64,000 bases of DNA from Ruditapes philippinarum (lineage: Eukaryota). The position numbers were made by a program, and so were the translations under genes. Below are positions 12,880 to 36,241 of this stretch, one piece after another (positions within the stretch are counted from its first letter, which is position 1; each line of letters opens with the position of its first letter). Below the pieces are notes generated by a model. It was not told where the DNA came from, searched no databases, and saw nothing but the letters and a program-made list of their open reading frames with translations. Location of the stretch: contig NW_026857783.1 in the NCBI RefSeq assembly GCF_026571515.1, positions 178,878 to 242,877 on the forward strand, written 5' to 3'.

Positions 12880-12905
12880 GTGATTGATTCTAATACAAAA
12901 TAAAT

Positions 12906-14751: not shown

Positions 14752-14825
14752 CCTGGAAAGAGTTGTTTCCCACTTGTGTAGCTAAAACTTCATCAAATAT
14801 GAAACAAGCATCAGAGTTTGTGATG
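14752..14825 (+). CDS. PARP4: VWA domain exon
   Basis: AWKELFPTCVAKTSSNMKQASEFVM; acceptor gtttatttcag|, donor ATG|gtaaat; phase 1 to 0. Confidence 0.65.
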
Positions 14826-14954
14826 GTAAATACACATGTATTTGTATAGAGAAAGTAAAGGAATTTTGTGACATTGCTCTTAATTTGTTTATGTCAAGCT
14901 TTGCTACTGACAGAAAAATAGGACCTTCACACTCATACGAGTGTATCTACAACA

Positions 14955-16105
14955 GGGTGTATCTTTGTTATACCCCCACAAACGAAGTTTAGGGGGGGTA
15001 TATAGGAGTCAGCTTGTCGGTCGGTTGGTCGGTCGGTCGGTCCACATCATGGTTTCCGGACGATAACTAGAGTTTGGAATGAGATATTGTAATCAGACTT
15101 GGTATATAGCAACCTTATGTGGAAACTCCGGTTGGTATTGCATTTGGACCCCCTGGAGTCAAGGTCAAGGTCAACGTTACTGAAAATAGAAAAATGGTTT
15201 CCGGACAATAACTACAGGTAGGAACGAGATATTGTTATCAAACTTGGTGTATAGCAAGCTTACATGAAGACCTGTGTTGGTATTGCATTTGGACCCCCTG
15301 AGGTCAAGGTCACCGTTACTAAAAATAGAAAAATGGTTTCCGGACAATAACTATGAATGAGATATTGTTATCAAACTTGGTGTATAGAAAGCTTATATGA
15401 AGACCTTGGTTGGTATTGCATTTGGACCCCCTGGGATCAAGGTCAAGGTCACCGTTATTTAATGGTTTCCGGACAATAACTACAGTTAGGAATGAGATAT
15501 TGTTATCAAACTTGGTGTATAGCAAGCTTATATAAAGACCTGGGTTGGTATTGCATTTGGACCCCCTGGGGTCATGGTCAAGGTCACTGTTACTAAAAAT
15601 AGAAAAATGGTTTCCAGACAGTTACTAGAGTTAGGAATGAGATATTGTTATCAAACTTGGGGTATAACAAGCTGATATGAAGACCTGGGTTGGTATTGCA
15701 TTTGGGCCCACTGGGGTCAAGGTCACTGTTACTAAAAATAGGAAAATGGTTTTCGGACAATAACTTGAGTTAGGAATGAGATATTGTAATCAAACTTGGT
15801 GTATAGCAAGCTTATATAAAGACCTGGGTTGGTATTGCATTTGGACCCCCTAGGGTCAAGGTCACCGATACAGTGTTACTAAAAATAGAAAAATGGTTTC
15901 CGGACAATAACTAGAGTTAGGAATGAGATATTGTTATCAAACTTTGTGAAAAGCAAGCTTATTCAGAGACCCCAGTTGGGATTACAATTAATTGAAATAT
16001 TTCTTTGTACACAGTTGATAGTTTGTGATCAATTTTTCTTCAGACTACTTACTTTTCAAAAAGTCAAAGTTGCTGGTGGGGGTATTAATCACCTTCAGTG
16101 ATAAG
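14955..16105 (+). mobile_element. TIR element (TTATACCCCCAC...GTGGGGGTATTA) with ~165-bp satellite x5
   Basis: 5' gttatacccccacaaacgaagtttagggggggtatataggagtcagcttgtcggtcggttggtcggtcgg; 3' gttgctggtgggggtattaatcaccttcagtgataag; internal unit ...ggtttccggacaataactagagttaggaatgagatattgttatcaaacttggtgtatagcaagctta... Confidence 0.6.
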
Positions 16106-16817
16106 TCTAGTTATTTTTTGGCACTAAAGGCCTTAAGGCAGTAATGTTTTTATCTTTGAATTTTACCTTTTACTGTTTCATGTAATAATTGATTGTACAG
16201 GGAAACTTCTGTAGTTCTTCTTTCTTATGAGAAGGAAGAACTATGTTTGTTGAAATTCACTGAGCCGTGATGCTATTAAATTTCACCTAGAAATCCAAAG
16301 CATTCAGAATGTATATGGGACATGCCATTTTGTTCTATGGACAGTGCCATTTTGATATAAGGTAGTTTTACTTTTAGTTTAGAGGTAAACACAGTTACTA
16401 GCAGCAGACTATAGGAAACAGTATGATTGTCATCATAGAACAGAAGAAGAAAAGTTTAGAAAAAAAAAGACAAAATTTAATGTATTATAATAAATGTCAT
16501 TTTGCGTGTATAAATTATTTCAGTAAATATATATTGTGACACCCCCACTTCCACCTTCAAATGGGACAAGTCTATCTGTTAATTGCATCAGAAAACATTG
16601 TATTGTCTATTTAAAGGTTGAATTGTCTGGCCCCTTTAAGACCATTTCTAGTCAAAGGAAACCACATCTGCATGACACTGCTTATTTTTTCCAGCTTCTA
16701 AACATGGACTCCTGTTTATAATCAAATGTATATTCATAAATTTAGTGTTGCCCTTGAAACAATTTTGGTAAGCTTAACTTGTTGAAGTAGCTAAATCTCA
16801 AGATAATGATATTTCAG

Positions 16818-17005
16818 AGCTTGTCTCCAACTATGGGTAACACAGAGGTTGTGAGGCCACTACATACATTCTACCTGATGAAACAGGAAAACTCCATGCA
16901 GAATGTGTTACTTATATCTGACGGACATATGAACAACACGGAACTGTTACTAAATAGTGTACGAACAAATTGCCAACATACCAGAGTGTTTACTGTAGGA
17001 GTCAG
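16818..17005 (+). CDS. PARP4: VWA domain exon
   Basis: SLSPTMGNTEVVRPLHTFYLMKQENSMQNVLLISDGHMNNTELLLNSVRTNCQHTRVFTVGV (VLLISDG... and VFTVGVG-type VWA blocks); acceptor atatttcag|, donor AG|gtaaat. Confidence 0.8.
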
Positions 17006-17745
17006 GTAAATCAATAAATACTTGGTTTAAACATATTTTTATTCAAAGTAATATATACATGTTAAAATTTACAATTTAAGCAGAAAGGAATTGGACCGAG
17101 AGCTACAATAGCTCATGGTAGTCCTCTCCTTTAACAAAAGCAATATGTTCATACATGTATATTACATGGCTTATCATAATTTTAATTAAACCCTATAAAG
17201 AAGGAAAATGAAGAGAAAAAAAATACAAATACATGTATGCAATTGATAGAAAATAATAAAGAGAAAGATGGAGAAAAGAGGAGTTTGCGGATGTTTCTAT
17301 ATCATTTGTCGTTTTGGTAGGAACATCATGTATGGAAAAAAAAACACTTTATTTTGAAGTGATAAGAAAATTGTTTGTGTTGATCAGGTATATGATTTAT
17401 AGGGATTTATAGATTGGTGAAAGTGGCAAGGAATCAAATAAGTTATAACTTGATTGCATTTTATAAAAGTGCATGTAATCATACTGTAGACAGGCTAAGA
17501 GCACATTTTTAAACAGATTTTTGAAGTTCTTATACATTCTTATTGTTCAGGTTTACCTGCTTTGTTATTAAAAATAATGTCCTAAAGATAATTTTTGTTA
17601 ATACATTATAGAAAAAGATAAGCATTTGGGCTTGATAACATATATCCCAAAGATATTTATATCGTTTATTAATGAGATGATACTTAAAAAAAAGTTGTAT
17701 AACATGAAATAAGGTAAAATACTTGAGGTTAGTGATTTGAGCATC

Positions 17746-17911
17746 AGCTCAGTCTGATCAGGATCCATGCTGTTCACTATCAGTTTCTCTACTTGTAATA
17801 GAGTTGGTAAGCGAACAGCATGGATCCTGATCAGACTGCGCGGATGCACAGGTTGATCTGGATCCATGCTGGTCACAAATGCGCAATGTTGGTTTTGTCG
17901 TGACGCGGCTC
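17746..17911. mobile_element. MITE family M, 5'-truncated copy abutting acceptor of exon 17928
   Basis: ...cagtctgatcaggatccatgctgttcactatcag...atgttggttttgtcgtgacgcggctc then atttatgtttttacag|TGG. Confidence 0.75.
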
Positions 17912-17927
17912 ATTTATGTTTTTACAG

Positions 17928-18027
17928 TGGCACAGCTGACAGACACATGTTGAGGGCTTTGGCTAGAGTTGGTGCAGGGTCCTTTGAGTACTTTGATACA
18001 AAAGTTAAATCTAAATGGGAAACAAAG
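17928..18027 (+). CDS. PARP4: VWA domain C-terminal exon
   Basis: SGTADRHMLRALARVGAGSFEYFDTKVKSKWETK; acceptor tgtttttacag| lies 14 bp after a MITE end; donor AAG|gtaaaa. Confidence 0.75.
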
Positions 18028-18391
18028 GTAAAAGTGATGGGCTGAGTATAGAAATAGTATGGTTAATTGTTTGTCATGTTGCTTAAGTTATTCCAAAATT
18101 CATGTTGTATTCCAGAAGACTGATACCTACAAACATTTCCAAAGATTTGTATGAAATAATTTTCTATTTTTCCATGAATATCTGTCAACTTCTCCTCAGA
18201 ATACATTGCATCAGTCTATGTAGGATAAAAAGACATCAGCCAAAAAATGTTTTCAACCAAATAGAAATTGAAAAATTTATCCAGCTTGGAGACTGCAGTT
18301 GATAAAGATCTGTAGAAATTGTACCCTCCCTGCAATTTGAGGTTCTTGTCTTTATTTTATCTATTATATCTAAATGTCTTTATTTAACAAG

Positions 18392-18562
18392 GTTAAATCT
18401 CAGATCAGCAAGGCCGCCCAGCCAGGTCTGACGTCAGTACAAGTGGAATGGGAACAGCATGGTGCCGATGTTCCACCTCCGGTTCAAGCCCCTCGACAAA
18501 TTACGGCCCTATTTAACGGTTCTCGTTCCGTGATATACGGATATGTTCCTAACTGTACAATG
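18392..18562 (+). CDS. PARP4: PARP4-like post-VWA exon
   Basis: VKSQISKAAQPGLTSVQVEWEQHGADVPPPVQAPRQITALFNGSRSVIYGYVPNCTM; acceptor tatttaacaag| is weak; donor ATG|gtaagt; 57 codons. Confidence 0.65.
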
Positions 18563-18926
18563 GTAAGTTCATTTTCTATTTTGTTTTCTGGTTGCTATAA
18601 TCTCTTATGGAGTATTAGAAATCTGTGTTTATATTTGCCACTTACATTTTTGTATTATATCTCCCTCTAAAAGTTATGATATTATAATTTATTTCCCTCT
18701 AAAATTATATTAATTTTGCCTTTAATATTTTTGAAAAAGACCATTGCTGGAGACTTACAACTAAATGCTCATGCAAATTTTATAAAAAAAAGAAAAGAAC
18801 TTTTTAACACATTATATTTGAATTTTATGCATCTAACTTGCATGCTATCTGTAGTATTAAATGGTAATTGTGCATAAAAATTAATATCCATATCCTCAAT
18901 ATAAGTATGAACTTCTGTAATTTTAG

Positions 18927-19007
18927 GCAACATTGAGAGCAAGTGTAGCTGGAGAAGAGGTCTCCACCATGGTATCAACCTCGGACCTCAGTATTACAAA
19001 TGGACAT
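18927..19007 (+). CDS. PARP4: PARP4-like post-VWA exon
   Basis: ATLRASVAGEEVSTMVSTSDLSITNGH; acceptor taattttag|, donor CAT|gtaaga; 27 codons. Confidence 0.6.
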
Positions 19008-19260
19008 GTAAGATTTTAAACTGTAGCATAGATTGATTATAAACTTCCCATAGCATGCCAAACATAATCATAAGTTGTTGTTTTAATATTAAAATTCAGA
19101 TATAACTTTTTTAACAATTTATCGAATATTTAGTATTGGGTCATTTGGTACGCTGACAATATATCATTATAAAATTTCTGTGAAAGTTAACTATACAGGC
19201 ATGACCTCACATGTATTTATTTAAAATTTGATAAATAGGCATAATAACTTTATTTTCCAG

Positions 19261-19341
19261 ATTTTACATCGTCTGACAGCAAGGGCAATAATCAGTGACT
19301 GGGAAAATGGAGTCTTGTCTGCTGACCGTACTGACCATGAG
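19261..19341 (+). CDS. PARP4: PARP4-like post-VWA exon
   Basis: ILHRLTARAIISDWENGVLSADRTDHE; acceptor tttattttccag|, donor GAG|gtacag. Confidence 0.65.
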
Positions 19342-19689
19342 GTACAGTAAAATTCCCCAAATCTGTGGGGTATTTATTATAGACATTTTTCACCAGTACA
19401 GGAACCATACTGTCCAGTCTTACCAGAATCATTTTTGACAGCAGTATTTCAACATTTTGACATCAGATTACTAGTACCAGTGAAATATGATTTATATCAT
19501 TCACTATATATGATCTCTAATTTATAAAAACACAGTCTTTTTATATGTTAGGCATAATAAAATTTTATCCTAAACATTTTCTTATATCAAATGTTGGTCA
19601 ATCACCAATATAACAGTCGATGTTTTGAAATATATAGTCATTCCAGCTCAACTTGACAATGAAAAAAGAGGCATAATGTTTTTTTAAGA

Positions 19690-19850
19690 TGATAAATTGC
19701 AGTCTATTATATATAGAGCATATTGAATGAGTGTTGGTTTAATACTAAATTTATTGAACGAGTTGAATAAAATCATATTATGCAAGCATAATATTTTTCT
19801 ATTCCACGAGTTAAATGAATTTAGTTTTGATTCTACACGAATATAGTATT
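19690..19850. repeat. palindromic MITE-like family C copy
   Basis: atattgaatgagtgttggtttaatactaaatttattgaacgagttgaataaaatcatattatgcaagcataatatttttctattccacgagttaaatgaatttag. Confidence 0.4.
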
Positions 19851-20096
19851 CTATTTGTCACACATATAAAAAAGAACGGTAAACTGTTAACAAGAGTCAC
19901 TTTTATTTGACGCACTATAGTGTAAAGCTAACAAGGCGCTTTAACGCTATGTTCATATATAGAGCGCCAATGACATCACATCAAAGTGTTATTACACAAG
20001 TGTTATATTGTTTTTAGTACATGGCTTTATTGTACTCCTGCACTATTAATTTAAAGAAGTAGGAAATTTCATGTATTTAATTATATTTTATTACAG

Positions 20097-20198
20097 ATAT
20101 TGAAGATGAACACTAAAGATTATATCATTGAGTTAAGTAAGGAGTACTCTATTGTCACTCAATTCACCAGCTTTGTTGCCATAGAAAAAAGAGACAAG
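20097..20198 (+). CDS. PARP4: PARP4-like exon with TSFVA motif typical of VIT/VWA-family C-terminal region
   Basis: ILKMNTKDYIIELSKEYSIVTQFTSFVAIEKRDK; acceptor ttttattacag|, donor AAG|gtatag. Confidence 0.7.
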
Positions 20199-20727
20199 GT
20201 ATAGTATTTCAATCTAAAATTTATAGTACTTGCATCAATGTTAGGGGGTTTTTTTTGTGTGCGGAGGTGGGGGTGAGTGGAGGGGATGGGGTGGTCAGGA
20301 GAGGTTTGTTGCATATCAGACTGGATCATCTAGAGTTAACCCACTAGATGCAAGATTTAAGATTACTTGCATACTTTGAACAATAAATTCCACTGTCATT
20401 ATGCATAAGTTGTATAAGTTGTAAATTTATGGGCAGCTGTAGAGAAATGGTGCTTAATAAAGATATGCGGTTCCTTTAAAAAAATTGATTATGGTTAAAA
20501 TGTAATAAAAACTCTGCTGTTACTAGTAATTATTGGTTTCAGCCTTATGGACTGTATTAAAATAATACATTTCTAGTAAAGTTTTAAAAACGATAATCAC
20601 AGCACAACAATTGTGTAATCCTTTGCGAAAAAGATTTTCTTTGCTAAATGCTCATTAGTTGACACAAAGTTAACACCAGTGAAAATAATGAAATTTCCAA
20701 ACAGAGCTGATATTACTTATGATGGTT

Positions 20728-21030
20728 TTTTTTTATGCCCCCTTTTATTGAGTTGGCACTGTCTGTCCGTATGTCTGTCTGTACATCCCCACTTACACAA
20801 CACAACTGTATCTTTGTCATGCATGGAGGGATTTTGAAATAACTTGACACAAGTGTCTACCACATCAAGACAATGTGTCATGTCCCTACTTTGAAGATCA
20901 AGTTCACACAGTTACAAGGTTCACATTCTCACAACTAGAGTTTAAAGGTACACACATTTGTGGCCGCACTGTAAATTTGTCATGCATTGAAGGTTTTAAA
21001 AAAATCAAAAAAAAAATCTTGTTTTTTATA
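20728..21030 (+). repeat. fragment of ATGCCCCC/(GTCT)n-headed element family, ending in A-rich tract that forms the polypyrimidine/acceptor context of exon 21040
   Basis: ttttatgcccccttttattgagttggcactgtctgtccgtatgtctgtctgtacatcc...; no matching 3' TIR, so truncated. Confidence 0.4.
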
Positions 21031-21039
21031 TTTCCAAAG

Positions 21040-21132
21040 GACGAGGAGAAGAAAGCAGTAGATGCCCCGGCTATGTCAGAACTAGTGGAGCGTGAAAATG
21101 TGGATCAACTTCAGTATATGGCATTTGAAGAG
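21040..21132 (+). CDS. PARP4: acidic linker exon
   Basis: DEEKKAVDAPAMSELVERENVDQLQYMAFEE; acceptor tatttccaaag| lies directly after a repeat-element fragment; donor GAG|gtaaga. Confidence 0.55.
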
Positions 21133-22245
21133 GTAAGATCAAAATAATAATTAGGTGGTTTGATGTTATAAGATTGTAGCTCATTCTTTATGTAAATTGA
21201 TTAACAAGTGTTTGCCACTACCATTTAACATGTTATATTTGAAGTAGCCAAAGCTATGGCCATTTTAGAAAATGATGAAGTAGCCAACTTTTTTACTAGG
21301 GGTGTAACTTGAATTGATCTGCAGAACAGTACAATCTCTGCAAAGCAGTACCCTTTGATAGGCAAAGCTTTTTGTTTTTGCAGAGTTTTTAGTCTAGATA
21401 AGTGCATTTTATTAAAAAAACCCTGCAAGCCTCCAGATGAGCCAAAATATTTAAAAAAAATAGTCTAACTTGGGGGAAATATACTTAGATTGTAAGATAA
21501 ATAGATTCAATATTTAAGTAATAATGTATATCTTTTATGAGCAATATATGACTTTGATTTTGCAGTATTTCATATCAACATATTTCTACTGCATTGCTAA
21601 TGCAGTAAGGGCTATTTTTGCATGTTTCCACCTATTTTTGGTAATTTACATGGATTGTTAGTGCAGTTTGCATTGTGTAAATTACTTTCTTTATTCAGTT
21701 TGCAATTATTTACTTTAAGATAACAGATTGTCATACAGGAATTGCATCACTGTATAATACTACAGAATAATAGATCTACAGCTATAAGAATAGTTCTAAC
21801 ACGCTTCACACTATTCCTCTATCAAAAAAATAGAGCAATCAAGTGCATTATTACAAGATATACAATGTATGCACAGCATAAAAAATTTGATTGCTTATGT
21901 GTCATGTGATGTTAGATAACTATGAAGTCAATAAACCAAATGACATCAAGAAAATTTCTTCTACGCTCAATTTAGTCTAACATATTTTTATCAATTCTCT
22001 TTTTATTAAGCATGTTATAATGGAAATAGATATATGTTTTTCTTGCATTAAAGTATAATAAAGCATGCTTTATCGTATTTAATCAGTGACAGGTTCATCG
22101 ACCTTCCTACGCATTTGAACTTGAACAGTGCATTATTCTACAACAGTGAACTCCACTAAATTTGATACAAATAAATGTAAATACCTAGTCCAATATTTAG
22201 GACAGTTAATACTCCAAATTATTATAATCTAATTTTGATTGACAG

Positions 22246-22395
22246 GATAATGACCTTGAGGCTTACTTTAAGAAACTAGATGATGAGCTAGATGAGATTG
22301 ATTCTGATGATGATAAAATCAGACTCCTTAAGGAAGGTTTCAAGCTTGTACGGATGATTCAAGATACAGACCAACAGACAGAGACAATACTGATG
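22246..22395 (+). CDS. PARP4: acidic/helical linker exon
   Basis: DNDLEAYFKKLDDELDEIDSDDDKIRLLKEGFKLVRMIQDTDQQTETILM; acceptor ttgattgacag|, donor ATG|gtttgt; 50 codons. Confidence 0.6.
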
Positions 22396-23014
22396 GTTTG
22401 TGGGATATATATACGCATATTAATTTGATAACTTTCCTCTTGTAGCTGAGGGGTTGCCTTAACGGGTTGAGGCATCAGAATTTCAGCTACCGTTTATCCC
22501 TAATTAAGAGGTGACAAAATGTGTAAGAATAGCTGGAGTCTATGCATCCCTTAGCTCCAGCAGTTGGGATGGTTTTGACCCCAGGTGTTGCTTTGAAGAT
22601 TGTAACACCCAAGGTCCTGTTTCGGTGCCTTTTAACCTAAACTTTGTTGGTGCGCCATAATATCAAACAAACAAATTATTAGATAACTTCTTCCAGGTTA
22701 TATGACATATTATGTAAATTGTAATTAATATAAGAATTTTGAACCAGCTGCTGGTACAGACCGGGATATCTAGCAAGAGGGTAACTGTTTTATGGCAGTA
22801 ACAAGGCTCTGTGTAGGGTGTAAGATTTTTCTAGAATCAGTGTAAATGGTAGAAAATCCTGTCTGACATGCACGAAAAAATATTGCAAAGGCTTTCTTTA
22901 CCATTTTATTCCTGAAAGAATTAAAATTTAAGATGGTTAAGAATAAAGCTTTTTTTCTCAATATTTGTGAACTGATCTGAAATCAGCTATTCATTTTATT
23001 ATCCTTGATTTCAG

Positions 23015-23087
23015 CTGGAAGAAGTGTTTGACAGTTTGGATATAGGTGATAAAGTGGACTTCAGTGAGACTTTTGGAATGGAAAGAA
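23015..23087 (+). CDS. linker exon preceding ubiquitin-like module
   Basis: LEEVFDSLDIGDKVDFSETFGMER; acceptor ttgatttcag|, donor A|gtaaga; ends phase 1, which exactly restores the UBL frame of the next exon. Confidence 0.5.
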
Positions 23088-23195
23088 GTAAGAATATATT
23101 TGTCTATATCAACCTTTAATAAGTTACTAGTACCTTTCTTTAATGTCAGATCATCTATAAGGGCCACCTTTTAATACACTTGAATACCTTTAAAT

Positions 23196-23430
23196 GAGCC
23201 GCGTCATGACAAAACCAACAAAGTGCGTTTGCGACCAGCATGAATCCAGACCAGCCTGCCCATCCGCGCAGTCTGATCAGGATCCATGCTGTTTGCTATC
23301 AGTTTCTCTACTTGTTATAGGGTTTGGAAGCGAACAGCATGGATCCTAATCAGACTGCGCGGATGCGCGGGCTGGTCTGGATACATGCTGGTCGCAAATG
23401 CATTATGTTGGTTTTGTTGTGACGCGGCTC
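23196..23430. mobile_element. MITE family M, full copy with AAAT TSD
   Basis: gagccgcgtcatgacaaaaccaacaaagtgcgtttgcgaccagcatgaatccagaccagcctgcccatccgcgcagtctgatcaggatccatgctg...gacgcggctc; flanks taaat|...|aaatt. Confidence 0.8.
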
Positions 23431-24349
23431 AAATTACGTTTTAATTATGTGGAAGCTTAGCAATATTTTGATTATGAAAGTACAAAAATGTTCTGTACTG
23501 GTTGGGGACCACCAAAAGCGGACAACCACCAAACCCGGACGGCCCCGAAAATGCTTAATATAGTATTTTCTTTGTTCAGTAGTTGTCAGTCACTTTTTTT
23601 TTTTTAACAATAAGTGCATGTTTCTTATATAATTTAGTAAATAAATTTATTTCAACCTCCGTAAATAGTAATATTTTAATGTCTATTTTAAGAATGTTGA
23701 TGTTGAAATTTGGGCATCAAAAAGCAATGCCTGATCTCATATACCAGCTATAATCATTTGCAAAGTAAACAATAGAATTTCCAAAACTTCAGCATTTGTT
23801 GCTGATATATTGTATATAATGTTAAAAATAAAAAATTAAAACACCCAAGCTTTTATATGAATTAAATCACGCCATGTACATATCTGGTACTGTAGTGTAG
23901 ACAATTTAGGTAATTTTGATACCCTCCTTGTCGAGCCTCAGATTTAAGTGTCAATACAATCAGAAATAATCTAACTAGTTCGTTAGTTAGGAGAAGAACC
24001 TAGCTGAACTGTGTCAAATTTTTAGGTCTCTGAGTTCGAAATTATGAAATCTGTATGGAAAATGTTCAAAAAGTGTCCAGTGATGGTCCCCGATGTTTAT
24101 TATAAAAAAGATAATAAAAAAAAAAATAATAATAATACCTAGAATGTACATGCTCATTATGTGAACCATATATACATGTTAAAAATTTTTATCAGAAAAT
24201 AACAGTATGTATTAATTCCATTTGAATATTATGCTTGTAGCTTATTTATCCAGAAGAAAGTTTCTGTATATAGGCCACCAATGTACTTAATATAATAATA
24301 TTATGAACTATTTTTCACTGGTTATAAACTTTTTTATTTATTGATCTAG

Positions 24350-24453
24350 GAAAGCCACCAAAACCAAAAAGTTCACATTTGTTTGTAAAAACTTTGACTG
24401 GCAAAACTGTGAATCTGGACTTGAATACTGACTGTACTATAGCTGACTTAAAG
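24350..24453 (+). CDS. ubiquitin-like domain, N-terminal half
   Basis: (R)KPPKPKSSHLFVKTLTGKTVNLDLNTDCTIADLK parallels ubiquitin MQIFVKTLTGKTITLEV; acceptor ttgatctag|, donor AAG|gtattt; no in-frame ATG, so it is an internal exon. Confidence 0.75.
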
Positions 24454-24529
24454 GTATTTAATTAAATTTCTTTTATCATTTGTTGGTTATGATTTATGAT
24501 TATGATACATTAACCTGTAACTTGCTAAA

Positions 24530-24790
24530 ACTTGTTGTTGTGTTTATTACTTCGGATCACGGCAGTAAGCCACATTGAATTTACCAGAGCACAGTTCAGC
24601 CACCGCATTGTTCTTGGACAGGCTGTCGAGCTGTTTATCAGTACTAATTGCTTTCACTTTTGCAAGCAAGTGATAACTTGTATACATGACAGAGCAGAGG
24701 TACAGTGCGAATGACTGTGGTCAATCACAACAAAAGTGACCTGCACCATCTGGGAATCGAACCTGGGTCGCCCAGCATATTTTTACATGC
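24530..24790 (-). repeat. tRNA-derived SINE-like element or tRNA pseudogene fragment on minus strand
   Basis: ctgggaatcgaacctgggtcgcc is the reverse complement of a GGTTCGATTCC T-arm/B-box; no intact cloverleaf or A box could be folded by eye. Confidence 0.35.
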
Positions 24791-25725
24791 CAGTACAAGT
24801 GATGGGGAAAAGTAATTTTTCTCTTAATGAATTAACATTTGTCTTTTATTCCCAAGAGACATATATAAATCAAAATAATTTAGAAAGAAATGTTCTTACT
24901 TTAAGCTTATCAATTTATCTAATGAAGCCTTTCTTATACCCCTGAATGTAGATTTTAATCTTTAACCTATTTGATCCAAATGTGATTTAGACTTTGACAC
25001 CACTTGTTTAGAACCAGCCTAGTCTGCACATCCATGCAGTCTGACCACAAGGGCTCTATACTGTGGGAAGTTCAATTTTCATATTATTAGCTTGACTATT
25101 TGCAGAATAATCGAGCTAATGCAGTCACCCATTTGTTGGCGTTGGTGTCCCTGTGGTTAAGTTTTTGCGTGTAAGCTGATATCTCCATAACTACTGAAGG
25201 GAATGGATTGAAACTTCACACACTTGTTCTCTGTGATTATCTAACATGATTGGCACAAGTCCAATAACTCTTATTTGCTTTTTTTGCATAATTATGCTCC
25301 TTTTTTACTTAGAAATTCTTGTTAAAGTTTTTGCTTGTAAGCTGGTATCTTCATAGGGTTTGTGCTTTTTTGGGGACAATTTAATGCTTTCATAATAAAG
25401 CAGTGATTTACTCGATAAGACATCTTAATAACAAGCCTTTGTACCTTTTTGGACAATTTTATGTATTCATATAGGTAAGTACATGTATTATTATACTCAA
25501 TGAAACACCCTTGTGACAACTTTTTCGATTGGTGGAGCGCTGCTGTCCTCCAACAGTTCTTATTTTTAAATTGAAATCCTTTAAACTTTGGCTGAACTGT
25601 TCCAGGGCAAATCTTTTTCACAATGTCAGCAGGTCAGGAGTTCAACAATGATTTATCATGATAGCTATCCAAGAGATATAAGTCCGTTCTTTTTTTAAAC
25701 ACCATTTATTTGTTGTACAATCAAG

Positions 25726-25870
25726 GCTATGATACAAGACAAAGAGGGTATACCTCCTGACCAGCAGAGACTGGTTTACGCTGGACGTCAGCTAGTAGAT
25801 GACTGGACATTGCAGGATTATGATATACAAAATGAGTCAATGTTACATCTTGTATTGAGATTAAGGGGCG
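25726..25870 (+). CDS. ubiquitin-like domain, C-terminal half
   Basis: [48 protein letters not shown](G) parallels ubiquitin [47 protein letters not shown]; acceptor caatcaag|, donor G|gtaagt. Confidence 0.85.
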
Positions 25871-26195
25871 GTAAGTCTGTATGTCTTAAATATAGAGTAA
25901 AGGGAGATAATGCATGTTTCAATAACATCAGTCATAGTTGAATCCTTTATTTATTGGAAAAAGAGCAAAAATAAAGGATGATAAAATAGGTGTATTGTCT
26001 AAACATTATGAAGTATAATGACAATTTTTCTAATTTATAATTCTTTTGTTTTAGTTATTTTTGTCATTGTATGAAAAAAAAGTTAATTTCATGAAAAGAC
26101 TAAAACACTCTTGAATATTTGAATATTTCAAGCATTTTACTGTCTGTATGGAAATTTGTTTAACTCCAGTGAAAATGGTTATTCATTTCTTACAG

Positions 26196-26248
26196 GACCA
26201 TCAGAAGATCAGGTACTTAAATTTAAGAAGGCAAGAGGACTTTTGAAG
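26196..26248 (+). CDS. short linker exon
   Basis: (G)PSEDQVLKFKKARGLLK; acceptor tttcttacag|, donor AAG|gtaaaa; phase 1 to 0. Confidence 0.5.
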
Positions 26249-26774
26249 GTAAAAACATAATTATAATTATGTATTGATTAAAATGAAATACACAGGTTTT
26301 TTGTCTTCACCATATGGCTATATAGAAATCACTTTATTTAAGAAACAATATATCCCAAACAGTGATTTTATTGCTCTATAAAATCACTGTTTGGAGTTTG
26401 GATGTGAGGAATTATATTACGTGGGCATATAATGATCCTTATCCGAACGGCAAACAGTGATTTTATCAGGCATGTGAATTTATTATTTAATGAGTTCAGA
26501 TTTTCATAACACTGACTTTATAACCTGTTTTTGTAAGGAAAAAGGCAGCAGTATTTCTCTGACAGTAGTTTCACCACTATTAGATTTGTATTGTTTGGGA
26601 ATTTATAGCTGATAGTAGTCAGATGAGGCCTTTCCTTTAGGCCAGAATTTTTAGGCCAAATTTTAGAGCATCTAGCTTGCGTAATCTTTAAACTAGTGCT
26701 TTGTCCTGGTGTCTAGAGACATTTTGATCTGTGTAGAATAACATTCCATTAACTTGAGTAAAATTATATTCCAG

Positions 26775-26834
26775 CATGAAAGAGAAGCCATGTCAAAGAT
26801 TTCTGCAGATGTTAATGAAACTAAAATGCTTTTA
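26775..26834 (+). CDS. Ykt6-like R-SNARE motif, N part
   Basis: [20 protein letters not shown] parallels Ykt6 [15 protein letters not shown]; acceptor atattccag|, donor TTA|gtaagt. Confidence 0.7.
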
Positions 26835-26869
26835 GTAAGTTCTCCTTTAGTGGCCCTATCATTGCTTTG

Positions 26870-27050
26870 TTTTATATAGCTGTTTACATTTCACTTTACT
26901 ATTACACTTTACTTTAATGATATGCATTTAATTACTATTACACTTTACTTTAATGATATGCATTTAATTACTATTACACTTTACTTTAATGATATGCATT
27001 TAATTACTATTACACTTTACTTTAATGATATGCATTTAATTAAAAAGAAA
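26870..27050 (+). repeat. 35-bp tandem repeat x~5
   Basis: tattacactttactttaatgatatgcatttaattac repeated head-to-tail. Confidence 0.75.
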
Positions 27051-27614
27051 TGAGGACACCGTTCTGGACTCACTGGTAATAATGCAGGCTGTCAACCAAT
27101 TTCTAAAATTATATTCCTTTATAAGTAAAATTATACCTATTTGCAAAAATACTTCCTATATTAAATTTTATAGTATATTCTCCAAAATTATTCCTGCGTT
27201 TGGACAAAAAGGTAATCTAAGTCCTGAAAAAAATAATGTTTTTTTGGCTTGCTATGCTGGCAATACCATTGGATTGTAATTCTAAGTAAACATCAAATCT
27301 TGTTCCTATATTATTTCATTATTTTGGCTTAAACAGGTCTAAAGCCAGTTAACAGGTTGAAAATGTTGACTTAATATCCATTCCCCTATTCTTTGTTTGA
27401 CAAAGTTACTGAGCATGGAAAGTTAGAGGTTCAATTTCTAAAATGATGCATTGCTGATTTTGAGTAATTGATTTTCCCAGCTTTAAATTTATTCAAAGTT
27501 TTTAAGATTTTAAAATCAAGATACAAAAATTGAGCTACGAACTGTATAGAGCCAAGTCAGACTGCATGGACAATCTTTATATGGCAAGTTGTATTTATGG
27601 TTTTTGAATTATAT

Positions 27615-27849
27615 GAGCCGCGTCATGACAAAACCAACATAACCCGTTTGCGACCAGCATGGATCCAGACCAGCCTGCACATCTTCGCAGTCTGATCAGG
27701 ATCCATGCTGTTCGCTTACCAACTCTATTACAAGTAGAGAAACTGATAGTCAACAGCATGGATCCTGATCAGACTGCGCGGATGCGCAGGCTGGTCTGGA
27801 TCTATGCTGGTCGCAAACCAATTCTGTTGTTTTTTTTGTGACGCGGCTC
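27615..27849. mobile_element. MITE family M, full copy with ATAT TSD
   Basis: gagccgcgtcatgacaaaaccaacataacccgtttgcgaccagcatggatccagaccagcctgcacatcttcgcagtctgatcaggatccatgctg...tgtgacgcggctc; flanks atat|...|atat. Confidence 0.8.
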
Positions 27850-28032
27850 ATATATACAGCTTAACAGATGAATTTACAGAGGTAAATCCCTTAGAGATAC
27901 AGAAACTAGTAGTCCAGTTAACTTCTGGCAGTCCAAGTTTCAAAAACATAAAGGTCTTTACATTGTAACCAAATGCATGCTTCCCCTGAAACTGAACAAT
28001 ATTTTAACCAATGTTTTTTTCTCTCTTTTTAG

Positions 28033-28134
28033 AATGAAAATATACAAGCAGTACTGGAAAGGGGAGAAAAATTAGATGAATTAGTAGAAAAGTCAGGAGA
28101 CCTAAGTTTACAGAGTCAAATGTTCTATAAAACT
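28033..28134 (+). CDS. Ykt6-like R-SNARE motif core (zero-layer Arg)
   Basis: [34 protein letters not shown] parallels Ykt6 [38 protein letters not shown]; acceptor ctctctttttag|, donor ACT|gtaagt; 34 codons. Confidence 0.85.
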
Positions 28135-29202
28135 GTAAGTTTATCACATATTATAGAATGTATCAAAGTAGTATACTCCTAATGCATTACCTCCCTTTGA
28201 AGACTATTTAAATGGGCTAGGACTCAAATGTAAACTGCATTGAAAATGAAGGTATTTGGTTTAGACCGAAGTGTGGCCAACTTTTCAGCTGAACAGAGCA
28301 CATTGTTAAGTGCTGAATAGGTGAGCTTAAATTGTGATGGCAGTGTGTCCGTCATTTGTCAATTTATCCGCAAGATCTAAACTTCTTGATGGATCTTGAC
28401 CAAACTTCACAGAAATGCCACTACAGAAGTTGTATAATGGTTTCAGTATGATGCATTTAAGTAGGTCAAAGGAGCTAAAAATATACTTTAAAAATGAAAT
28501 CTTTAAAAATATTTTCCTCACAAACTACAATGCCCAGTGCTAAGATATTTGGCATGTAGCATTACCTTGTCAACATCTACAAAACTAATATAAATCAGGC
28601 CCCAAGGATCAAAAATGGCTTGGCTTTAGGGTTCACTTAGTTTACATAGGGTTATATAGAAAAAAAATACATTTAAGTCTACTTTATGAAACTGCAATAG
28701 TGTAAAGAAAAATAAAATTGATGAGTATGAATCAATTAAAGTGATTTATTAAATTGGTGCATGTGTGCAGGTCCTGTTGGGTTATACAATTTCTTCTATT
28801 CACAAATTCTACATTTCTCAAAGGGATTTTAGCCGCACTTCAAAGAAAGATTATCAACATATCATATTTTCGGGATTTTATGAGGTAGAATTATGGCCCT
28901 TTTGTGTTTGTTTCTGCTCGCAGATGTAATTCTGATGAAAAACTGTTTTATAATCATTTTTTTCATAGTCCCTCATGTACAGACTCAATCAAACTAAATC
29001 TGTTTATTTTCATGTAATTTTCTTGTGATTAATGCCTTCGAGGGATCACACTTTCTCCAGATTTTTATACATCACAACAGCAGGTGTCAAGCATGTGAAG
29101 TACTGAATTGACTAGATTTCAATAAATCTCTGCAATAAAAGTATTTTACCCAAAGATGAGCATAGTATATCTTTTAAGTTTAAGATTTTTCCTTTATTGC
29201 AG

Positions 29203-29426
29203 GCTCGCAGCAGAATTGATGACGATATGGAAAGAATGAACGTATATGATGGAACATCTGAAGAAGAAGAATCTGAAGAGTCAGATTTTGAATGTTCAGA
29301 AACTCTTGGAGTTGAACAAGAATTTGGAGTAGATCTTACTGCTGAAGAAGAAAGAGAATATGATTCAGATGATTCGGAAGGAAATTCTGAAGATGAACTG
29401 TTACATGAAGGACTGCAGATGAACTT
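29203..29426 (+). CDS. acidic (E/D/S-rich) exon; ends at GTGAGT donor, alternatively at in-frame TGA 29428-29430
   Basis: ARSRIDDDMERMNVYDGTSEEEESEESDFECSETLGVEQEFGVDLTAEEEREYDSDDSEGNSEDELLHEGLQMN; acceptor cctttattgcag|; donor GTGAGT at 29427 overlaps stop TGA; phase 2 continuation is compatible with exon 33448. Confidence 0.6.
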
Positions 29427-30035
29427 GTGAGTTTTTGTAAAGGCTATTTAGCTTTTTTTATATTTAGCTAGATTATACATGTATGTAGCTTAATAATGAA
29501 GTGGCAGATGATAATTATTGTCCATGTGTATGTTCAGGTTTTTTTTACTGAACCATTAAGCTTTGTCAATATTTTTTAAATAACTTGGCACAATAATGTT
29601 TGTTCACCATCACGAAACAATATGTCATAATTTAAATTCACAATAAGATGTCAATAATTAGGAACCATTACTGTTTCATTCCATGGGCATTTTTTATTAT
29701 TTTAATTAGATTTTCCAACAAAAAGCTCAGGTAATAAGATAAGTGAATATGGACAGACAGGCATTAGAGTGTGCCTAAGTTGTTAGAGTGTGCCTAAGTT
29801 GTAAACATTAGGTTCTCAGTGTAACTGAATATTTCTGTAACTTGGCAGTTATAAAAAAAGGGCTTACATTCATTGTAATGACTATTACACCTTCAAATAC
29901 ATATCTCTACCAAAGGTAATAACTTAAAGGTCATTCCGACAAGTTTGTTGGTAGTACAATGTATGCGAATTATGTTCTGTTCCAATAACCTGAGGATTTG
30001 TGCTGGGATGAGATACCAGCAGGGAGTTTTTTAGC

Positions 30036-31700
30036 TCACCTGTCACAAAGTGACAGGGTGAGCTTTTGTGATCGCTTTTCGTCCGGCGTCTGTCCGGCGT
30101 CCGTCCGTCCGTAAACTTTTGCTTTAAAGGACATCTCCTCATAAACCACTGAGCCAATTTCATCCAAACTTCACAGGAATGTTCCTTTGGTGGTCACCTT
30201 GAAAAAATTGTTCAAAGAATTTAATTCCATGCAGAACTCTGGTTGCCATGGCAACCGAAAGAAAAATCTTTAAATATCTTCTTTTAAACAACCCTAAGAG
30301 CTAGAGCTAAGATATTTGGCATGAAACATCTTCTAGTGAGTGTTTACCAAGTTTGTTCAAATAAAAGCCCTGGGGTCAAAATTGGCCCCGCCCCAGGGGG
30401 TCATAGATTTTCCCTATATGCATATAGTAAAAACTTAAAAAATCTTCTTTTAAAGAACCCAAAGAGCTAGAGCTAAGATATTTGGCATGAAACATCTTCT
30501 AGTGAGTGTCTACCAAGTTTGTTTAAAAAAAAGCCCTGGGGTCAAAATTGGCCCCGCCCCAGGGGGTCATTGATTTTCCCTATATGCATATAGTAAAAAC
30601 TTAAAAAATCTTCTTTTAAAGAACCGAAAGAGCTAGAGCTAAGATATTTAGCATGAAACATGTTCTAATGGGTGTCTACCAAATTTGTTCAAATAAAAGA
30701 CCTGGGGTCAAAATTGGCCCCGCCCCAGGGGGTCATTGATTTTCCCTATATGCATATAGTAAAAAAATCTTCTTTTAAAGAAACCAAGAGCTAAGATATT
30801 TGGCATGAAACATCTTCTAGTGAGTGTCTACCAAGTTTGTTCAAATAAAAGCCCTGGGGTCAAAATTGGCCCCGCCCCATGGGGGGTCATAGATTTTCCC
30901 TATATGCATATAGTAAAAACTTAAAAAATCTTCTTTTAAAGAACCCAAAGTGCATAAGCTAAGATATTTGGCATGAAACATCTTCTAGTGAGTGTCTACT
31001 AAGTTTGTTTAAATAAAAGCCATGGGGTCAAAATTGGCCCCGCCCCAGGGGGTCATTGATTTTCCCTATATGCATAAAAATTATAGTAAAAACTTAAAAA
31101 ATCTTCTTTTAAAGAACCCAAAGAGCTAGAGCTAAGATATTTAGCATGAAACATGTTCTAATGGGTGTCTACCAAATTTGTTCAAATAAAAGCCCTGGGG
31201 TCAAAATTGGCCCCGCCCCGGGGGTCATTGATTTTCCTTATATGTGTATGGCAAAAACTTAAAAATCTTCTTTGAAAAAACCCATATAGCTAGAGATTAG
31301 ATATTAAGCATGAATCATCTTCTAATCAGTGTCTACAAAGTTTGTTTAAATAAAAGCCCCGGGGTCAAAATTGGCCCTGCCCCGGGGGTCATTGATTTTC
31401 CTTTTTTGTGTATAGCAAAAACTTAAAAATCTTCTTTGAAAAAACCCAAATAGCTAGAGTTTAGATATTAAGCATGAAACATCTTTTAGTAAATATCTAC
31501 AAAGTTTGTTCAAATAAAAGCCTGGGGGTCAAAACTGGCCCTGCCCCAGGGGTGTCATTGTTTTTAACTATATGTGTATAGTAAAAACTTAAAAAATCTT
31601 CTTTTAAAAAACCCAATGAGCTAGAACTTAGATGTTTAGCATGAAACATATCTGGCCCTCTTGTTTTAGATCTTGAGACAGCAAGATATTTTATGCCTAG
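30036..31700 (+). mobile_element. satellite-bearing element: perfect 33-bp hairpin head, (GTCCG)n tract, then ~9 units of a 165-180-bp satellite
   Basis: agctcacctgtcacaaagtgacagggtgagct hairpin at 30036-30068; tcgtccggcgtctgtccggcgtccgtccgtccg; unit ...gagctagagctaagatatttggcatgaaacatcttctagtgagtgtctaccaagtttgtt..aaagccctggggtcaaaattggccccgccccagggggtcattgattttccctatatgcatatagtaaaaac; related head at 61140-61320. Confidence 0.7.
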
Positions 31701-34058: not shown

Positions 34059-34665
34059 ATGGCACAATCCTATGAGAAATTCTCGGCACAGGCAGAGGTA
34101 TCTACAAAAAGGCTTATGGATGTAGACACACATAAAGCTACGCCTGAATTAGAACAGATGTTAGATGCTGGAGCTGATACAATGTTTAAAAAAGTAAACT
34201 CCAAATCGGCAGCATATGACAGTGATGATGAATCTTGTGATGATGATATGGGATTTGATCTTTTTGGGGGGGATAGTTATGAAAAACAGGAAAGGTCTTC
34301 ACCTAGTCCTGTCTCACGTAAAACACATGGTGGAATGCTCAATCGTGACATACATTTAAGATCACCTATAGAGATAGAGAAAGAAGAGATTGTCCAGAAA
34401 GCTGTATCACATGTAAATGTAGATATGCTAGAGTGTAGTGAAGAGCCTGAATTTGCATACTGTTTGAGCATGGAAAAAGACTATACTGAACCTATGGAAG
34501 AGTGTTATGAAGATGATGACATTTATGAGAACCCTGAAGTTGAATATGAAGGTCAGAGGGGGACCTTTGCAGATTTGAGTCATGACTTATCTGCACGTGA
34601 ACAAATTACTATGAAAGCAAATGTAGTATCAAGTTTTGATAGTGAACCTCAGTTTGATGAAATTG
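34059..34665 (+). CDS. large acidic exon containing ribosomal P-stalk-tail-like motif
   Basis: 607-nt ORF MAQSYEKFSAQAEV...DSDDESCDDDMGFDLFGGDSYEKQERSSP...; acceptor tattatag|ATG; donor TTG|gtgagt at 34666; ATG sits at first exon position. Confidence 0.65.
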
Positions 34666-34894
34666 GTGAGTATACTCTAAAAGCAATAGTTTGATACAGG
34701 TTTTTATTGCTTAAGTCTTAGAAGTTAGAAATATTGTGTCTTAAATCTGTAAAACTATTATTGGACAGTGGGACACTACTTAGATATTTAGCATGAAACA
34801 TTGACTTGTAGACCTCTACAAAAATTGTTCACGCTATAACCCTGTGGTCAAAATTGCCCAACCCCAGGGATCATGGGTTTTCTTTGTATACATA

Positions 34895-35770
34895 TACAGT
34901 TGACTCTCAATAAGTCAAAATCGCTTAACTCAAAATTCCGCGTTAGTCGAAGAATTTCTAAAGTCCCGTCAAATTTCCTTCTTTATCTTTGTCTTTTTAC
35001 TCTGCTTAGGTCAAATTTTGACTTACTGAGACTCCTGTTTAGTCGAAAAGAAAATTTGGTCTTGTCAATTTAAGTCCAACATTTTTTCATCTCAATTAGT
35101 CGAAGTGTGAAAACAGCTGATTGATCAAAGGTCGGCGACATCAAGGTGAGAATTTGTCACTTGTGATTCACACGTTTCATAGTAATTTTAATTGCCGATC
35201 ATCATGTATTATTAACATGTTGTAAAAGTGGCTTTAATCGGTTTCAGGACTTAATTGGTTTTAACAGTTATATATCTAAATTAAGATTTAGTAACATTTC
35301 TTAAAGAAAGTTGACTCGTGCCAGTCTGACAGGTTTTAGTCAAATAACAGCCTAGGTATTGATGTTTGTTATCAACGTAAATGACATTTGTATAATTAAT
35401 GTTCCGTCATATTGCATACATTAATATGTACTTCCGGTTCACGATAGTTGCTTCTTTTGTTTTTGTCCGATGATCAATTCACTTCAAATATTAGATAAAT
35501 TTTTGAATGTTGAAATAAATATGTTATTGTGCTTTTATTATAATGAATTGTCATGAGTGCTTATTAAAAACATGTGCTTTACTGATGAATACTAACAAAC
35601 TTGCATTTAAGTCATTGCTACAAATGTTTGTGTTTCTTTGCACATGATTCAATCAGGCACATGTATATACATGTACGAATGTCAACGTAATCCACGTTAC
35701 TCAAATTTCGTTTATCTAGAAGTAAAATGCCCAGTCCCTTGGATTTCGAGTTACCGAGAGTCAACTGTAG
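34895..35770. mobile_element. ~870-bp TIR element (ACAGTTGACTCTC...GAGAGTCAACTGT) inserted into a copy of the 180-bp satellite unit
   Basis: left atacagttgactctcaataagtc, right cgagagtcaactgtag; flanking 34755-34894 and 35771-35900 resemble one unit of the 30-31.7 kb satellite; partial copy at 43555-43830. Confidence 0.6.
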
Positions 35771-36173
35771 TTATTTCTGTAAAATTCCTCTTTTTAAAAG
35801 CTAAAAGAGTTAGATCTTAGATATTTAGCATGAAATCTCTAAAAAAATTGTTCAAACTATGGCCCTGGGGTCAAATTTCGCTTATAGGTTTTCCTTTTAT
35901 ACATTTAGTAAATAATTTGAAAAACATTTCCTCCAGAACTATAAAGGTTAGGGCTTTGTGATTATATAACTGCACATTTGAACTCCATACCAGGCTGTAT
36001 TATAACACAGATCACTCAAAGTCAGGATCTATTTCCAAAATAAAAAGCCATATTACAAACATGCAGCATTGAATAATCACTCATACATAGGTAAATTTTA
36101 ATTTCAATGAAACAAAGATAATGTGAAGTATTGTAATTCTATAATAAAGACATTTTAATATGTTACATTTCAG

Positions 36174-36241
36174 TATCTGGACGGCCAAGCTTTGGTGGTG
36201 GTGGAATGCCTGATAGTGTGGAAATGGACCAGAAAAAAAAG
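36174..36241 (+). CDS. short exon (SFGGGG motif)
   Basis: (V)SGRPSFGGGGMPDSVEMDQKKK; acceptor tgttacatttcag|, donor G|gtaatt; phase 1 to 0 and in frame with the big exon at 41161. Confidence 0.5.

Follow-up and report, generated by a model that had tools for sequence, protein, structure and literature searches.

The stretch analysed here (the window) comprises 64,000 nucleotides of Ruditapes philippinarum DNA (assembly GCF_026571515.1, contig NW_026857783.1, positions 178,878 to 242,877 of the forward strand; coordinates below count from its first letter). Judged by homology, it carries a mollusc orthologue of PARP4 (vault PARP), all of whose features lie on the + strand, and two internal exons of this gene, at 24350-24453 and 25726-25870, encode a copy of ubiquitin. 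An initial annotation, made from the letters of the DNA, had described these exons as a split ubiquitin-like domain (UBL) joined in phase to an upstream PARP4-like exon and followed, past its Gly-Gly, by more coding sequence. The present study concerns this ubiquitin cassette, the gene that contains it and the role it may play there.

Exons running from 615 to 20198 specify the PARP4 core, from the helical/WGR region through ART, VIT and vWA to the end of the ITIH-like region. In tblastn comparisons, eight PARP4-like proteins are colinear with 18-21 window exons between 0.6 and 21 kb, and a homologue search with all of the non-ubiquitin exons matched PARP4 proteins exclusively. The catalytic triad of the ART domain is intact, with H in LFHAS (4632), Y in GIYFA (5868) and E in DDEYVIY (7373). 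The VIT exons (9569-9793 and 10877-11038) and the vWA exons (13762-13950 and 16815-17003) were placed by tblastn colinearity; the colinear matches of this region show 55-66% overall identity to PARP4 from molluscs, echinoderms and chordates, and the homologues matched carry PF08487, PF13757 and PF00092. The ITIH-like region ends in exon 20097-20198 (phase 0 to 0; ...SIVTQFTSFVAIEKRDK). The last exon conserved with other PARP4s, 21040-21132 (phase 0 to 0; DEEKKAVDAPAMSELVERENVDQLQYMAFEE), bears a 'VD.L.YMGW' motif and ends ...VERENVDQLQYMAFEE. The window starts at about residue 250 of the PARP4 protein, the start of the gene lying upstream of the window and the BRCT region outside it.

The first exon of the cassette (24350-24453; 104 nt, phase 1 to 0) encodes (R)KPPKPKSSH and then ubiquitin residues 3-27 (LFVKTLTGK...IADLK). 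The second (25726-25870; 145 nt, phase 0 to 1) encodes residues 28-75 and supplies the first base of the G76 codon (AMIQDKEG...LHLVLRLRG+g). Both exons have AG/GT borders, the donor of exon 2 being GTAAGT. The spliced product reads KPPKPKSSH-LFVKTLTGKTVNLDLNTDCTIADLK, followed by 48 residues and (G); the part from exon 1 ends ...SSHLFVKTLTGKTVNLDLNTDCTIADLK, and exon 2 accounts for the 48 residues plus (G).

The match of this product to ubiquitin is far beyond chance. Profile PF00240 aligns over its full length (positions 1-72/72, E=3e-25; 88.2 bits, the cut-off being 25.4), and a phmmer comparison with PDB sequences is gapless over ubiquitin residues 2-76, at 95 bits per repeat. The cassette is identical to ubiquitin at 51/75 positions (68%) and differs at the other 24/75; exon 25726-25870 shows 76% identity to ubiquitin 26-76. 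The full-length profile match and the 68% identity bear out the earlier claim that the two exons make up a complete ubiquitin domain with LRLRGG, and identity of this order over the whole domain points to a beta-grasp fold. NEDD8 and SUMO were ruled out as identities, ubiquitin being clearly the best match; a homologue search that included the UBL was dominated by polyubiquitins and is informative only for the ~68% identity to ubiquitin. Besides the C-terminal LRLRGG tail, the cassette keeps L8, H68 and V70, with a conservative I44 to V replacement. It carries the changes K29M, K48R and K63N. Without K29, K48 and K63, and with its Gly-Gly followed by Pro and further protein, the cassette is not ubiquitin proper.

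Upstream, the frame of the cassette is closed by TAA at 24325-24327, and no in-frame ATG occurs between this codon and the end of exon 1, in agreement with the initial annotation, which had seen an acceptor but no start in the first UBL exon. Entry into the frame is provided by exon 23015-23087 (73 nt, phase 0 to 1; LEEVFDSLDIGDKVDFSETFGMER+a): the base a that it leaves over and the 'ga' of exon 24350 form an Arg codon. A scan of the 21.2-24.3 kb interval for open AG...GT segments that lead from phase 0 to phase 1 left exon 23015-23087 as the sole one with usable splice signals, which upholds the proposal that its one-nucleotide overhang alone restores the frame. A separate first exon between 23.1 and 24.35 kb had been named as the observation that would speak against this arrangement; the only ATG-started candidate in that interval is a 13-nt 'MFCT' with a weak donor. 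The description of the upstream exon as PARP4-like held in part: the gene is PARP4, but exon 23015-23087 is PARP4-like by position only, no sequence homologue of it having been found in other PARP4s. Its identification as a degenerate 14-3-3 remnant was ruled out for lack of significant similarity. One of the palindromic repeat copies described in the last section lies between this exon and the cassette.

Downstream, the G76 codon is split, g at 25870 being completed by the 'ga' of 26196; reading through the donor likewise yields Gly-Gly. The exon that finishes G76, 26196-26248 (phase 1 to 0), gives G and then PSEDQVLKFKKARGLLK, so that Pro stands directly after Gly-Gly. Nine consecutive exons, from 20097 to 29426, make up a single uninterrupted frame of 318 codons. 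The UBL is thus internal and split, with coding sequence beyond its Gly-Gly as had been claimed, and the uninterrupted frame establishes the ubiquitin copy as an integral part of the predicted PARP4 reading frame. At 104+145=249 nt the cassette is symmetric (phase 1-1), and it could therefore be shuffled, or skipped in frame.

Exons between the cassette and the vault anchor

The first module past the Gly-Gly resembles the SNARE motif of YKT6. It is distributed over exon 26775-26834 (HEREAMSKISADVNETKMLL), exon 28033-28134 (NENIQAVLERGEKLDELVEKSGDLSLQSQMFYKT, containing the zero-layer Arg) and the beginning of 29203-29430, where the motif ends (ARSR) and an acidic stretch takes over. Together these segments (26775-26834, 28033-28134, 29203-29214) match YKT6 residues 135-192 with E=1e-13 (phmmer, PDB), well ahead of VAMP4, VAMP8 and VAMP7, and the zero-layer Arg falls in LERGEKL. 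The Pfam Synaptobrevin profile (PF00957) matches the same exons with E=4.5e-13 and 49.3 bits (cut-off 26.4). Because the YKT6 homology spans three exons, it validates the exon chain that follows the ubiquitin. The window copy shares the heptad motif and the zero-layer arginine with R-SNAREs and YKT6; unlike them, it has no longin domain and no membrane anchor. The match begins at YKT6 residue 135, neither the lipid anchor (CCAIM) nor a transmembrane helix is present, and FYKTAR is followed by SRIDDDMERM..., without a Cys motif or a hydrophobic stretch. The intron right after the first SNARE exon contains a perfect 36-bp x4 repeat (26896-27042).

The exon starting at 29203 has two exits, a good donor, CTT/GTGAGT (exon end 29426, phase 2), and an in-frame TGA at 29428-29430. 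Since the TGA lies directly past the 29427 donor, an unspliced short isoform is possible, made of PARP4, UBL, SNARE and acidic tail and lacking the vault anchor.

Two large exons lie further downstream. The acidic exon 34059-34665 (phase 0 to 1; 202-codon open reading frame (ORF), coding log-odds 85 bits) contains, at 34239-34274, the sequence DDDMGFDLFGGD, a near copy of the C-terminal tail of the ribosomal stalk P-proteins (SDDDMGFGLFD), here placed internally. Exon 41161-42444 (1284 nt, phase 0 to 0; 428-codon ORF, log-odds 90 bits) is Gln-rich, with repeats of the MAPQLQQ type. Poly-Pro runs occur six times in it (with a 66-nt tandem unit at 41959-42152), and three PSF[GAS]F[GS]ATTG repeats (41752, 41923 and 42199) resemble those of FG nucleoporins. 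A database search with the downstream exons only returned nothing at E<=0.01, exon 41161-42444 being without a homologue by sequence. Pieces of actin, H3, 14-3-3, calmodulin, HSP70, CTD, tubulin tail, Rho and histones were searched for in the window and none was found. A strict scan between 29426 and 34059 gave a single candidate joining exon, of 40 nt, which was unconvincing. An exon-chaining program selected the large exons, with high coding scores. The small exons that it proposed between them, including 45830-45959, were distrusted: they comprise implausible micro-exons and repeat-derived pieces, and the program missed the exon at 52250.

The gene is predicted to end in the MVP-interaction domain (MVPID), through which PARP4 is docked in the vault (PMC12280208, PMC10450202). 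For 32 vertebrate PARP4s, the C-terminal 190 residues were combined into a profile, and this matches two ORFs of the + strand in colinear order, at 52208-52408 (E=8.7e-4) and at 53936-54394 (E=4.8e-11). The corresponding exons are 52250-52349 (phase 0 to 1; NGYWEMNDNLEKLLCIDFSICKSVLETAGLKSL+g; vertebrate profile positions 41-79) and the terminal exon 53988-54397, which takes one nucleotide from 52349; they join in phase and end in TAA (54395-54397). The terminal exon has 16 database relatives, including a Haliotis 'PARP4-like' protein and an Aplysia MVP-ID model that carries PF26156 (PARP4_MVP-ID). The exons at 34059 and 41161 and those of the MVPID are on the same strand and in order. With the MVPID at 52.2-54.4 kb, the predicted gene covers at least 54 kb of the window; with the core exons upstream and the MVPID downstream, the cassette, which is preceded by more than 1200 PARP4 residues, falls within the linker that connects the enzyme half to the vault anchor. 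The 'C-terminal modules' invoked in the initial annotation are present, and they can now be named as a YKT6 SNARE motif, a P-stalk tail look-alike, an FG/poly-Pro exon and the MVPID.

No mollusc PARP4 model of the homologue list contains an MVPID, which suggests that public models are generally truncated in the linker. At the Nucella locus, none was detected within the gene plus 2 kb. The Aplysia californica locus (KB941528.1, 820,902-890,750) offers a comparison. There, a partial PARP4 model ends in a UBL and two P-stalk motifs, and a 'POM121' model follows downstream at a distance of 10 kb, on the same strand, the interval containing no called gene. The latter, XP_005096629.2 (P0254, 'nuclear envelope pore membrane protein POM 121'), contains a counterpart of exon 41161-42444; it has poly-Pro, FG repeats and ~8 Pol II CTD-like YSPTSPA heptads, and its C-terminus is a PARP4 MVP-ID. 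Almost certainly this model represents the PARP4 gene's 3′ half, and the synteny supports a single long gene in the window.

Relatives of the cassette and fragments in other PARP4 tails

PF00240 is present in nine gastropod PARP4-like models from eight species (Gigantopelta, Batillaria with two models, Littorina, Nucella, Bulinus, Elysia, Plakobranchus and Aplysia). The models come from independent pipelines. In caenogastropods the cassette sits ~15 residues past 'VD.L.YMGW', in other gastropods after a 14-3-3-like helical stretch. Identity to ubiquitin across the relatives ranges from 36 to 68%. Fourteen positions are invariant between ubiquitin and nine cassettes (T7, G10, K27, P37, Q41, G47, D52, L56, L69, V70, R72, L73, R74 and G75). 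The run R72-L73-R74-G75 is kept in 10/10 aligned sequences and G76 in 9/10, the most constant parts being the RLRG(G) tail and the TLTG loop; I44, K48 and H68 vary. In molluscan cassettes IADLK, VAELK or IADFK replaces the IENVK of ubiquitin, a common feature that argues for one origin and not for repeated capture. Pro is the residue after Gly-Gly in four lineages (window, Gigantopelta, Littorina and Nucella), and heterobranch gastropods have GGG at the junction. K29 is also absent from the Littorina and Nucella cassettes.

Phase-1 introns flank the cassette in all three genes compared, those of the window, Nucella and Aplysia. A single exon encodes it in Nucella (L001 55933-56170) and Aplysia (L003 42355-42621), the phase-0 intron between K27 and A28 (24454-25725) being found only in the window; this is either a gain specific to the window lineage or a loss in Nucella and Aplysia. 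Repeat-like sequence lies inside this intron. A tRNA-derived short interspersed element was considered and rejected, as ARAGORN found no tRNA and the piece is single-copy in the window. The closest relative of the window protein, P0121 (transcript-derived, 66% identical), ends before any UBL. In a neighbour-joining tree built on the PARP4 core, the window groups with P0121 inside Mollusca, apart from the sampled gastropods and pteriomorph bivalves.

Comparison of invertebrate PARP4 tails with a panel of conserved proteins and with Pfam identified further pieces of conserved proteins, and not whole domains. Actin is represented by profile positions 2-54/410 in Mytilus, Pinctada, two Saccostrea, Magallana, a brittle star and an acorn worm; 14-3-3 by positions 124-217/223 in amphioxus, an acorn worm and Gigantopelta, more weakly in others. 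The Synaptobrevin/YKT6 motif (profile positions 9-47/89) occurs in the window and, in similar form, in Saccostrea cucullata (P0130). The P-stalk tail (Ribosomal_60s 67-88/88) is found in eight mollusc proteins and in two fishes, Cyprinodon tularosa (P0192, 'DDMGFGLFDDD') and Amphiprion ocellaris (P0181), and may be an old conserved feature of PARP4 linkers. Magallana has a piece of HSP70 (positions 417-517/599) and Pinctada calmodulin, the latter possibly through a model fusion. Histone H3 residues 2-22 are represented in Littorina and Batillaria. These H3-tail look-alikes lie downstream of the cassette, at ~1331-1351 in Littorina saxatilis P0133 and at ~1481-1490 and ~1558-1574 in Batillaria P0128; the sequences RTNQTARMSTGGKAPAR and RTRQTARRSTGGRAPR (P0133, P0128) are 76% identical to H3 residues 2-22. 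Overall, the module content of PARP4 tails differs between lineages.

Like vertebrate PARP4/vPARP, the window gene has, in order, an ART domain with H-Y-E, an ITIH-like VIT-vWA region, a long linker and a C-terminal MVPID. It differs in the linker, described as featureless in vertebrates and here holding recognisable cassettes. Appended domains as such are on record. In the survey of Perina et al. (2014), PARP4-like proteins (clade 5) with an added 14-3-3 are listed for amoebae, amphioxus, sea urchin and Capsaspora, others have actin or actin-binding domains, and ubiquitin-related domains occur in Acanthamoeba (PMC4245714); the general architecture has therefore been known since then. The mollusc ubiquitin cassette is a new variant of it: the survey includes neither this cassette, nor the fragment nature of the pieces, nor their position between the ITIH-like region and the MVPID, and it sees in the appended domains a connection with ubiquitination and the cytoskeleton and does not regard them as look-alikes. 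In the literature we found no description of the fragmentary nature and ITIH-like-to-anchor position of the linker pieces, none of the YKT6, P-stalk, H3, FG and CTD pieces, and none that treats the PARP4 linker as decoys.

Readings of the ubiquitin copy

In UBA52, RPS27A, polyubiquitin and FAU, too, a second protein is encoded in frame with ubiquitin or with a close UBL that ends in Gly-Gly. In these, ubiquitin is N-terminal, identical or nearly so, and followed by a residue that permits co-translational cleavage; the window cassette, in contrast, is internal, 68% identical and has Pro at the position after the scissile bond (P1′). Pro after ubiquitin impairs cleavage by cellular deubiquitinases (DUBs), and uncleaved fusions are attacked through K29 (PMC8605321). 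The Gly-Gly-Pro junction, together with the loss of K29, K48 and K63, suggests a retained module that general host DUBs would not constitutively cleave, in line with the non-cleavable integral UBL that the initial annotation had offered as one option, and we infer that the copy stays in the protein. The K29M, K48R and K63N changes fit a module selected to remain there without becoming a degradation signal. The UBLs of RAD23, parkin, USP and TBK1/IKK proteins likewise keep a ubiquitin fold in the mature protein. Integral UBL domains usually show 15-35% identity to ubiquitin and have no RLRGG tail, whereas the window cassette is 68% identical and has kept it. That the tail is the most conserved part, though a structural UBL needs none, argues that the cassette is probably read by an enzyme gripping RLRGG.

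The reading we lean towards, without being confident of it, is that the cassette is a displayed look-alike, a bait for ubiquitin-directed enzymes of pathogens. The cassette is one bead in a string of short copies of very conserved cytosolic proteins. In the window this string runs from ubiquitin through the YKT6 SNARE motif and the P-stalk tail to the FG/poly-Pro repeats; other invertebrates have in it residues 2-54 of actin, the final third of 14-3-3, the tail of histone H3 and the HSP70 piece. Unlike in ordinary ubiquitin fusions, the copy would persist in the mature protein, neither cleaved by general host DUBs nor extended into degradation chains. It would be bound, modified or cut by enzymes such as viral or bacterial deubiquitinases, or by toxins that modify ubiquitin. 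Cleavage at LRLRGG would part the catalytic half from the vault anchor and in this way report the intruder. The fragmentary neighbours and their turnover between lineages speak for this reading. In mammals, the corresponding linker is a disordered region that evolves under strong positive selection (PMC4038475), and it has been suggested as a site of viral proteolysis altering vault association (PMC10450202). YKT6 is a substrate of the BoNT/X toxin (PMC5543303).

A broader and more doubtful proposal is that the entire PARP4 linker may be an array of integrated decoys displayed in or on the vault, such that attack on a copy, for instance cleavage at LRLRGG, would unhook or activate the ADP-ribosyltransferase. 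Its members would copy the host proteins most often attacked, or exploited as cofactors, by toxins and viral enzymes: the tail of ubiquitin, the D-loop region of actin, SNARE motifs, the P-stalk and H3 tails, 14-3-3, calmodulin, FG repeats and Pol II CTD heptads. Among such targets or cofactors, the P-stalk tail is associated with ricin-type toxins, actin K50 and the D-loop with ACD and protealysin-type toxins, 14-3-3 with ExoS-type toxins, calmodulin with adenylate-cyclase toxins and FG nucleoporins with picornaviral 2A proteases. In known integrated decoys and tripwires, modification of the target copy is the signal (PMC7857732, PMC13037943). Plant NLR-IDs, NLRP1 and CARD8 are alike in having a copy of a pathogen target within a fast-evolving region, there in a defence-linked protein; PARP4, which is not known to have an effector, a cleavage or a signalling output of this kind, differs in presenting many different look-alikes on a vault-tethered ADP-ribosyltransferase instead of an NLR or inflammasome protein. 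For PARP4 the putative defence link is drawn from positive selection in mammals and not from function.

Several points weigh against the bait reading. The locus is known here from its genomic letters, and the small exons that would join 29426 (phase 2) to 34059 (phase 0), and 34665 to 41161, were not found. Pro at P1′ would hinder many pathogen proteases of the DUB type too, and the heterobranch GGG indicates that the cleavage-resistant junction is not universal. The P-stalk motif ranges from molluscs to fish, and 14-3-3 from amoebae to amphioxus; a conserved housekeeping partner fits such old, widespread modules better than an arms race does. The association of the pieces with toxin targets is tentative and may be no stronger than for 'any abundant conserved protein'. 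Finally, with the TGA past the 29427 donor, a short isoform without the vault anchor could be made.

Alternatively, the cassette would be an endogenous docking module, a permanent UBL handle recruiting proteasome receptors, UBA/UIM proteins or p97 adaptors to PARP4 or into the vault; the SNARE, P-stalk and poly-Pro pieces would likewise recruit normal partners, with no pathogen involved. We regard this as possible, if rather unlikely. By sequence the ubiquitin fold is complete, with L8, H68 and V70 kept and I44 changed to V, and many integral UBL domains likewise have a non-cleavable junction and no chain lysines. Some of the motifs in the linker are old and conserved over wide phylogenetic distances, and Perina et al. 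see in the appended domains links to ubiquitination and the cytoskeleton (PMC4245714). The conservation pattern fits docking less well, RLRGG being the best conserved element and the I44-patch positions varying, whereas integral UBLs normally lose the tail. Moreover, the neighbouring modules are fragments unable to fold like their parent proteins, and the module content changes from lineage to lineage.

Host DUBs might instead cut after RLRGG, constitutively or on a signal, and free the enzyme half, which would then end in ubiquitin, from the SNARE/P-tail/MVPID half, much as in ubiquitin-ribosomal fusion genes; this option, raised in the initial annotation, we consider improbable. RLRG is invariant and GG nearly so across molluscs, and the heterobranch GGG is cuttable by DUBs. 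At least one host enzyme class, Unp/USP4, is active on the ubiquitin-proline bond, as Gilchrist reportedly described in 1997. Cytopathogenic pestiviruses set a precedent for internal ubiquitin as a cleavage signal, since their inserts lie within a long polyprotein and cleavage after Gly-Gly frees the downstream part (PMC8310069); these, however, are viral recombinants with exact host ubiquitin, whereas the gene of the window is cellular, its cassette is diverged and conserved among molluscs, and its junction has Pro. Against processing, Pro alone among P1′ residues impairs cleavage by DUBs in general, and it is conserved in four lineages; the domain is only 36-68% identical to ubiquitin. To our knowledge, ubiquitin is N-terminal in every ubiquitin-fusion precursor gene, unlike in the internal cassette. 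It is harder still to credit that the UBL exons do not belong to PARP4 but are a small gene nested in one of its introns, or a decaying ubiquitin pseudogene that happens to look spliceable. Such a view, which we hold to be very unlikely, could draw on a locus read from genomic DNA, on P0121 stopping before the UBL and on exon 23015-23087 having no homologue. It is opposed by the absence of an in-frame ATG and of any plausible first exon, by intact AG/GT borders and a frame uninterrupted into the YKT6 motif, and by the occurrence of the cassette, with common intron phase, in nine gastropod PARP4 models of independent pipelines.

What PARP4 and the vault particle do is an old question, for which the rapid evolution of the mammalian linker has so far been the one evolutionary clue. 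By itself the cassette, which has the character of a symmetric (phase 1-1) shuffling unit, would attract modest interest; its interest grows because it exposes a structured, look-alike-rich linker in PARP4. In invertebrates this linker is not featureless but built from recognisable pieces (ubiquitin, YKT6, ribosomal stalk, actin, 14-3-3 and others). The pieces name candidate readers, namely deubiquitinases, SNARE-cleaving proteases, ribosome-inactivating proteins and actin-directed toxins, and the vague idea of a 'host-pathogen interface' in the PARP4 linker becomes experimentally concrete. If the decoy array were true, the vault would be an effector-triggered immune sensor, which would account for the positive selection on the mammalian linker. 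If the pieces are ordinary docking motifs, they still provide a useful map of PARP4 partners, of modest general interest. In practical terms, public mollusc PARP4 gene models are commonly truncated or split in the linker, one Aplysia half going under the name 'POM121'.

Repeats of the window

The window is AT-rich (~33% G+C), with short exons, long introns and many repeats. One family, resembling miniature inverted-repeat transposable elements, is palindromic and ~237 bp long, with 103-nt arms that are 90% complementary; its six copies all lie in PARP4 introns (12905-13128, 17741-17912, 23195-23431, 27614-27850, 49007-49213 and 49631-49872). Tandem satellite arrays with units of 139-173 bp fill introns and the 3′ flank, at 3508-4261, 8599-9022, 15049-15962, 30263-31649, 39435-40888, 47511-47993 and 54548-55621. 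Some arrays have units in common, a 145-bp unit being present at 8.6 and 39.4 kb and a 167-bp unit at 3.5 and 47.5 kb.

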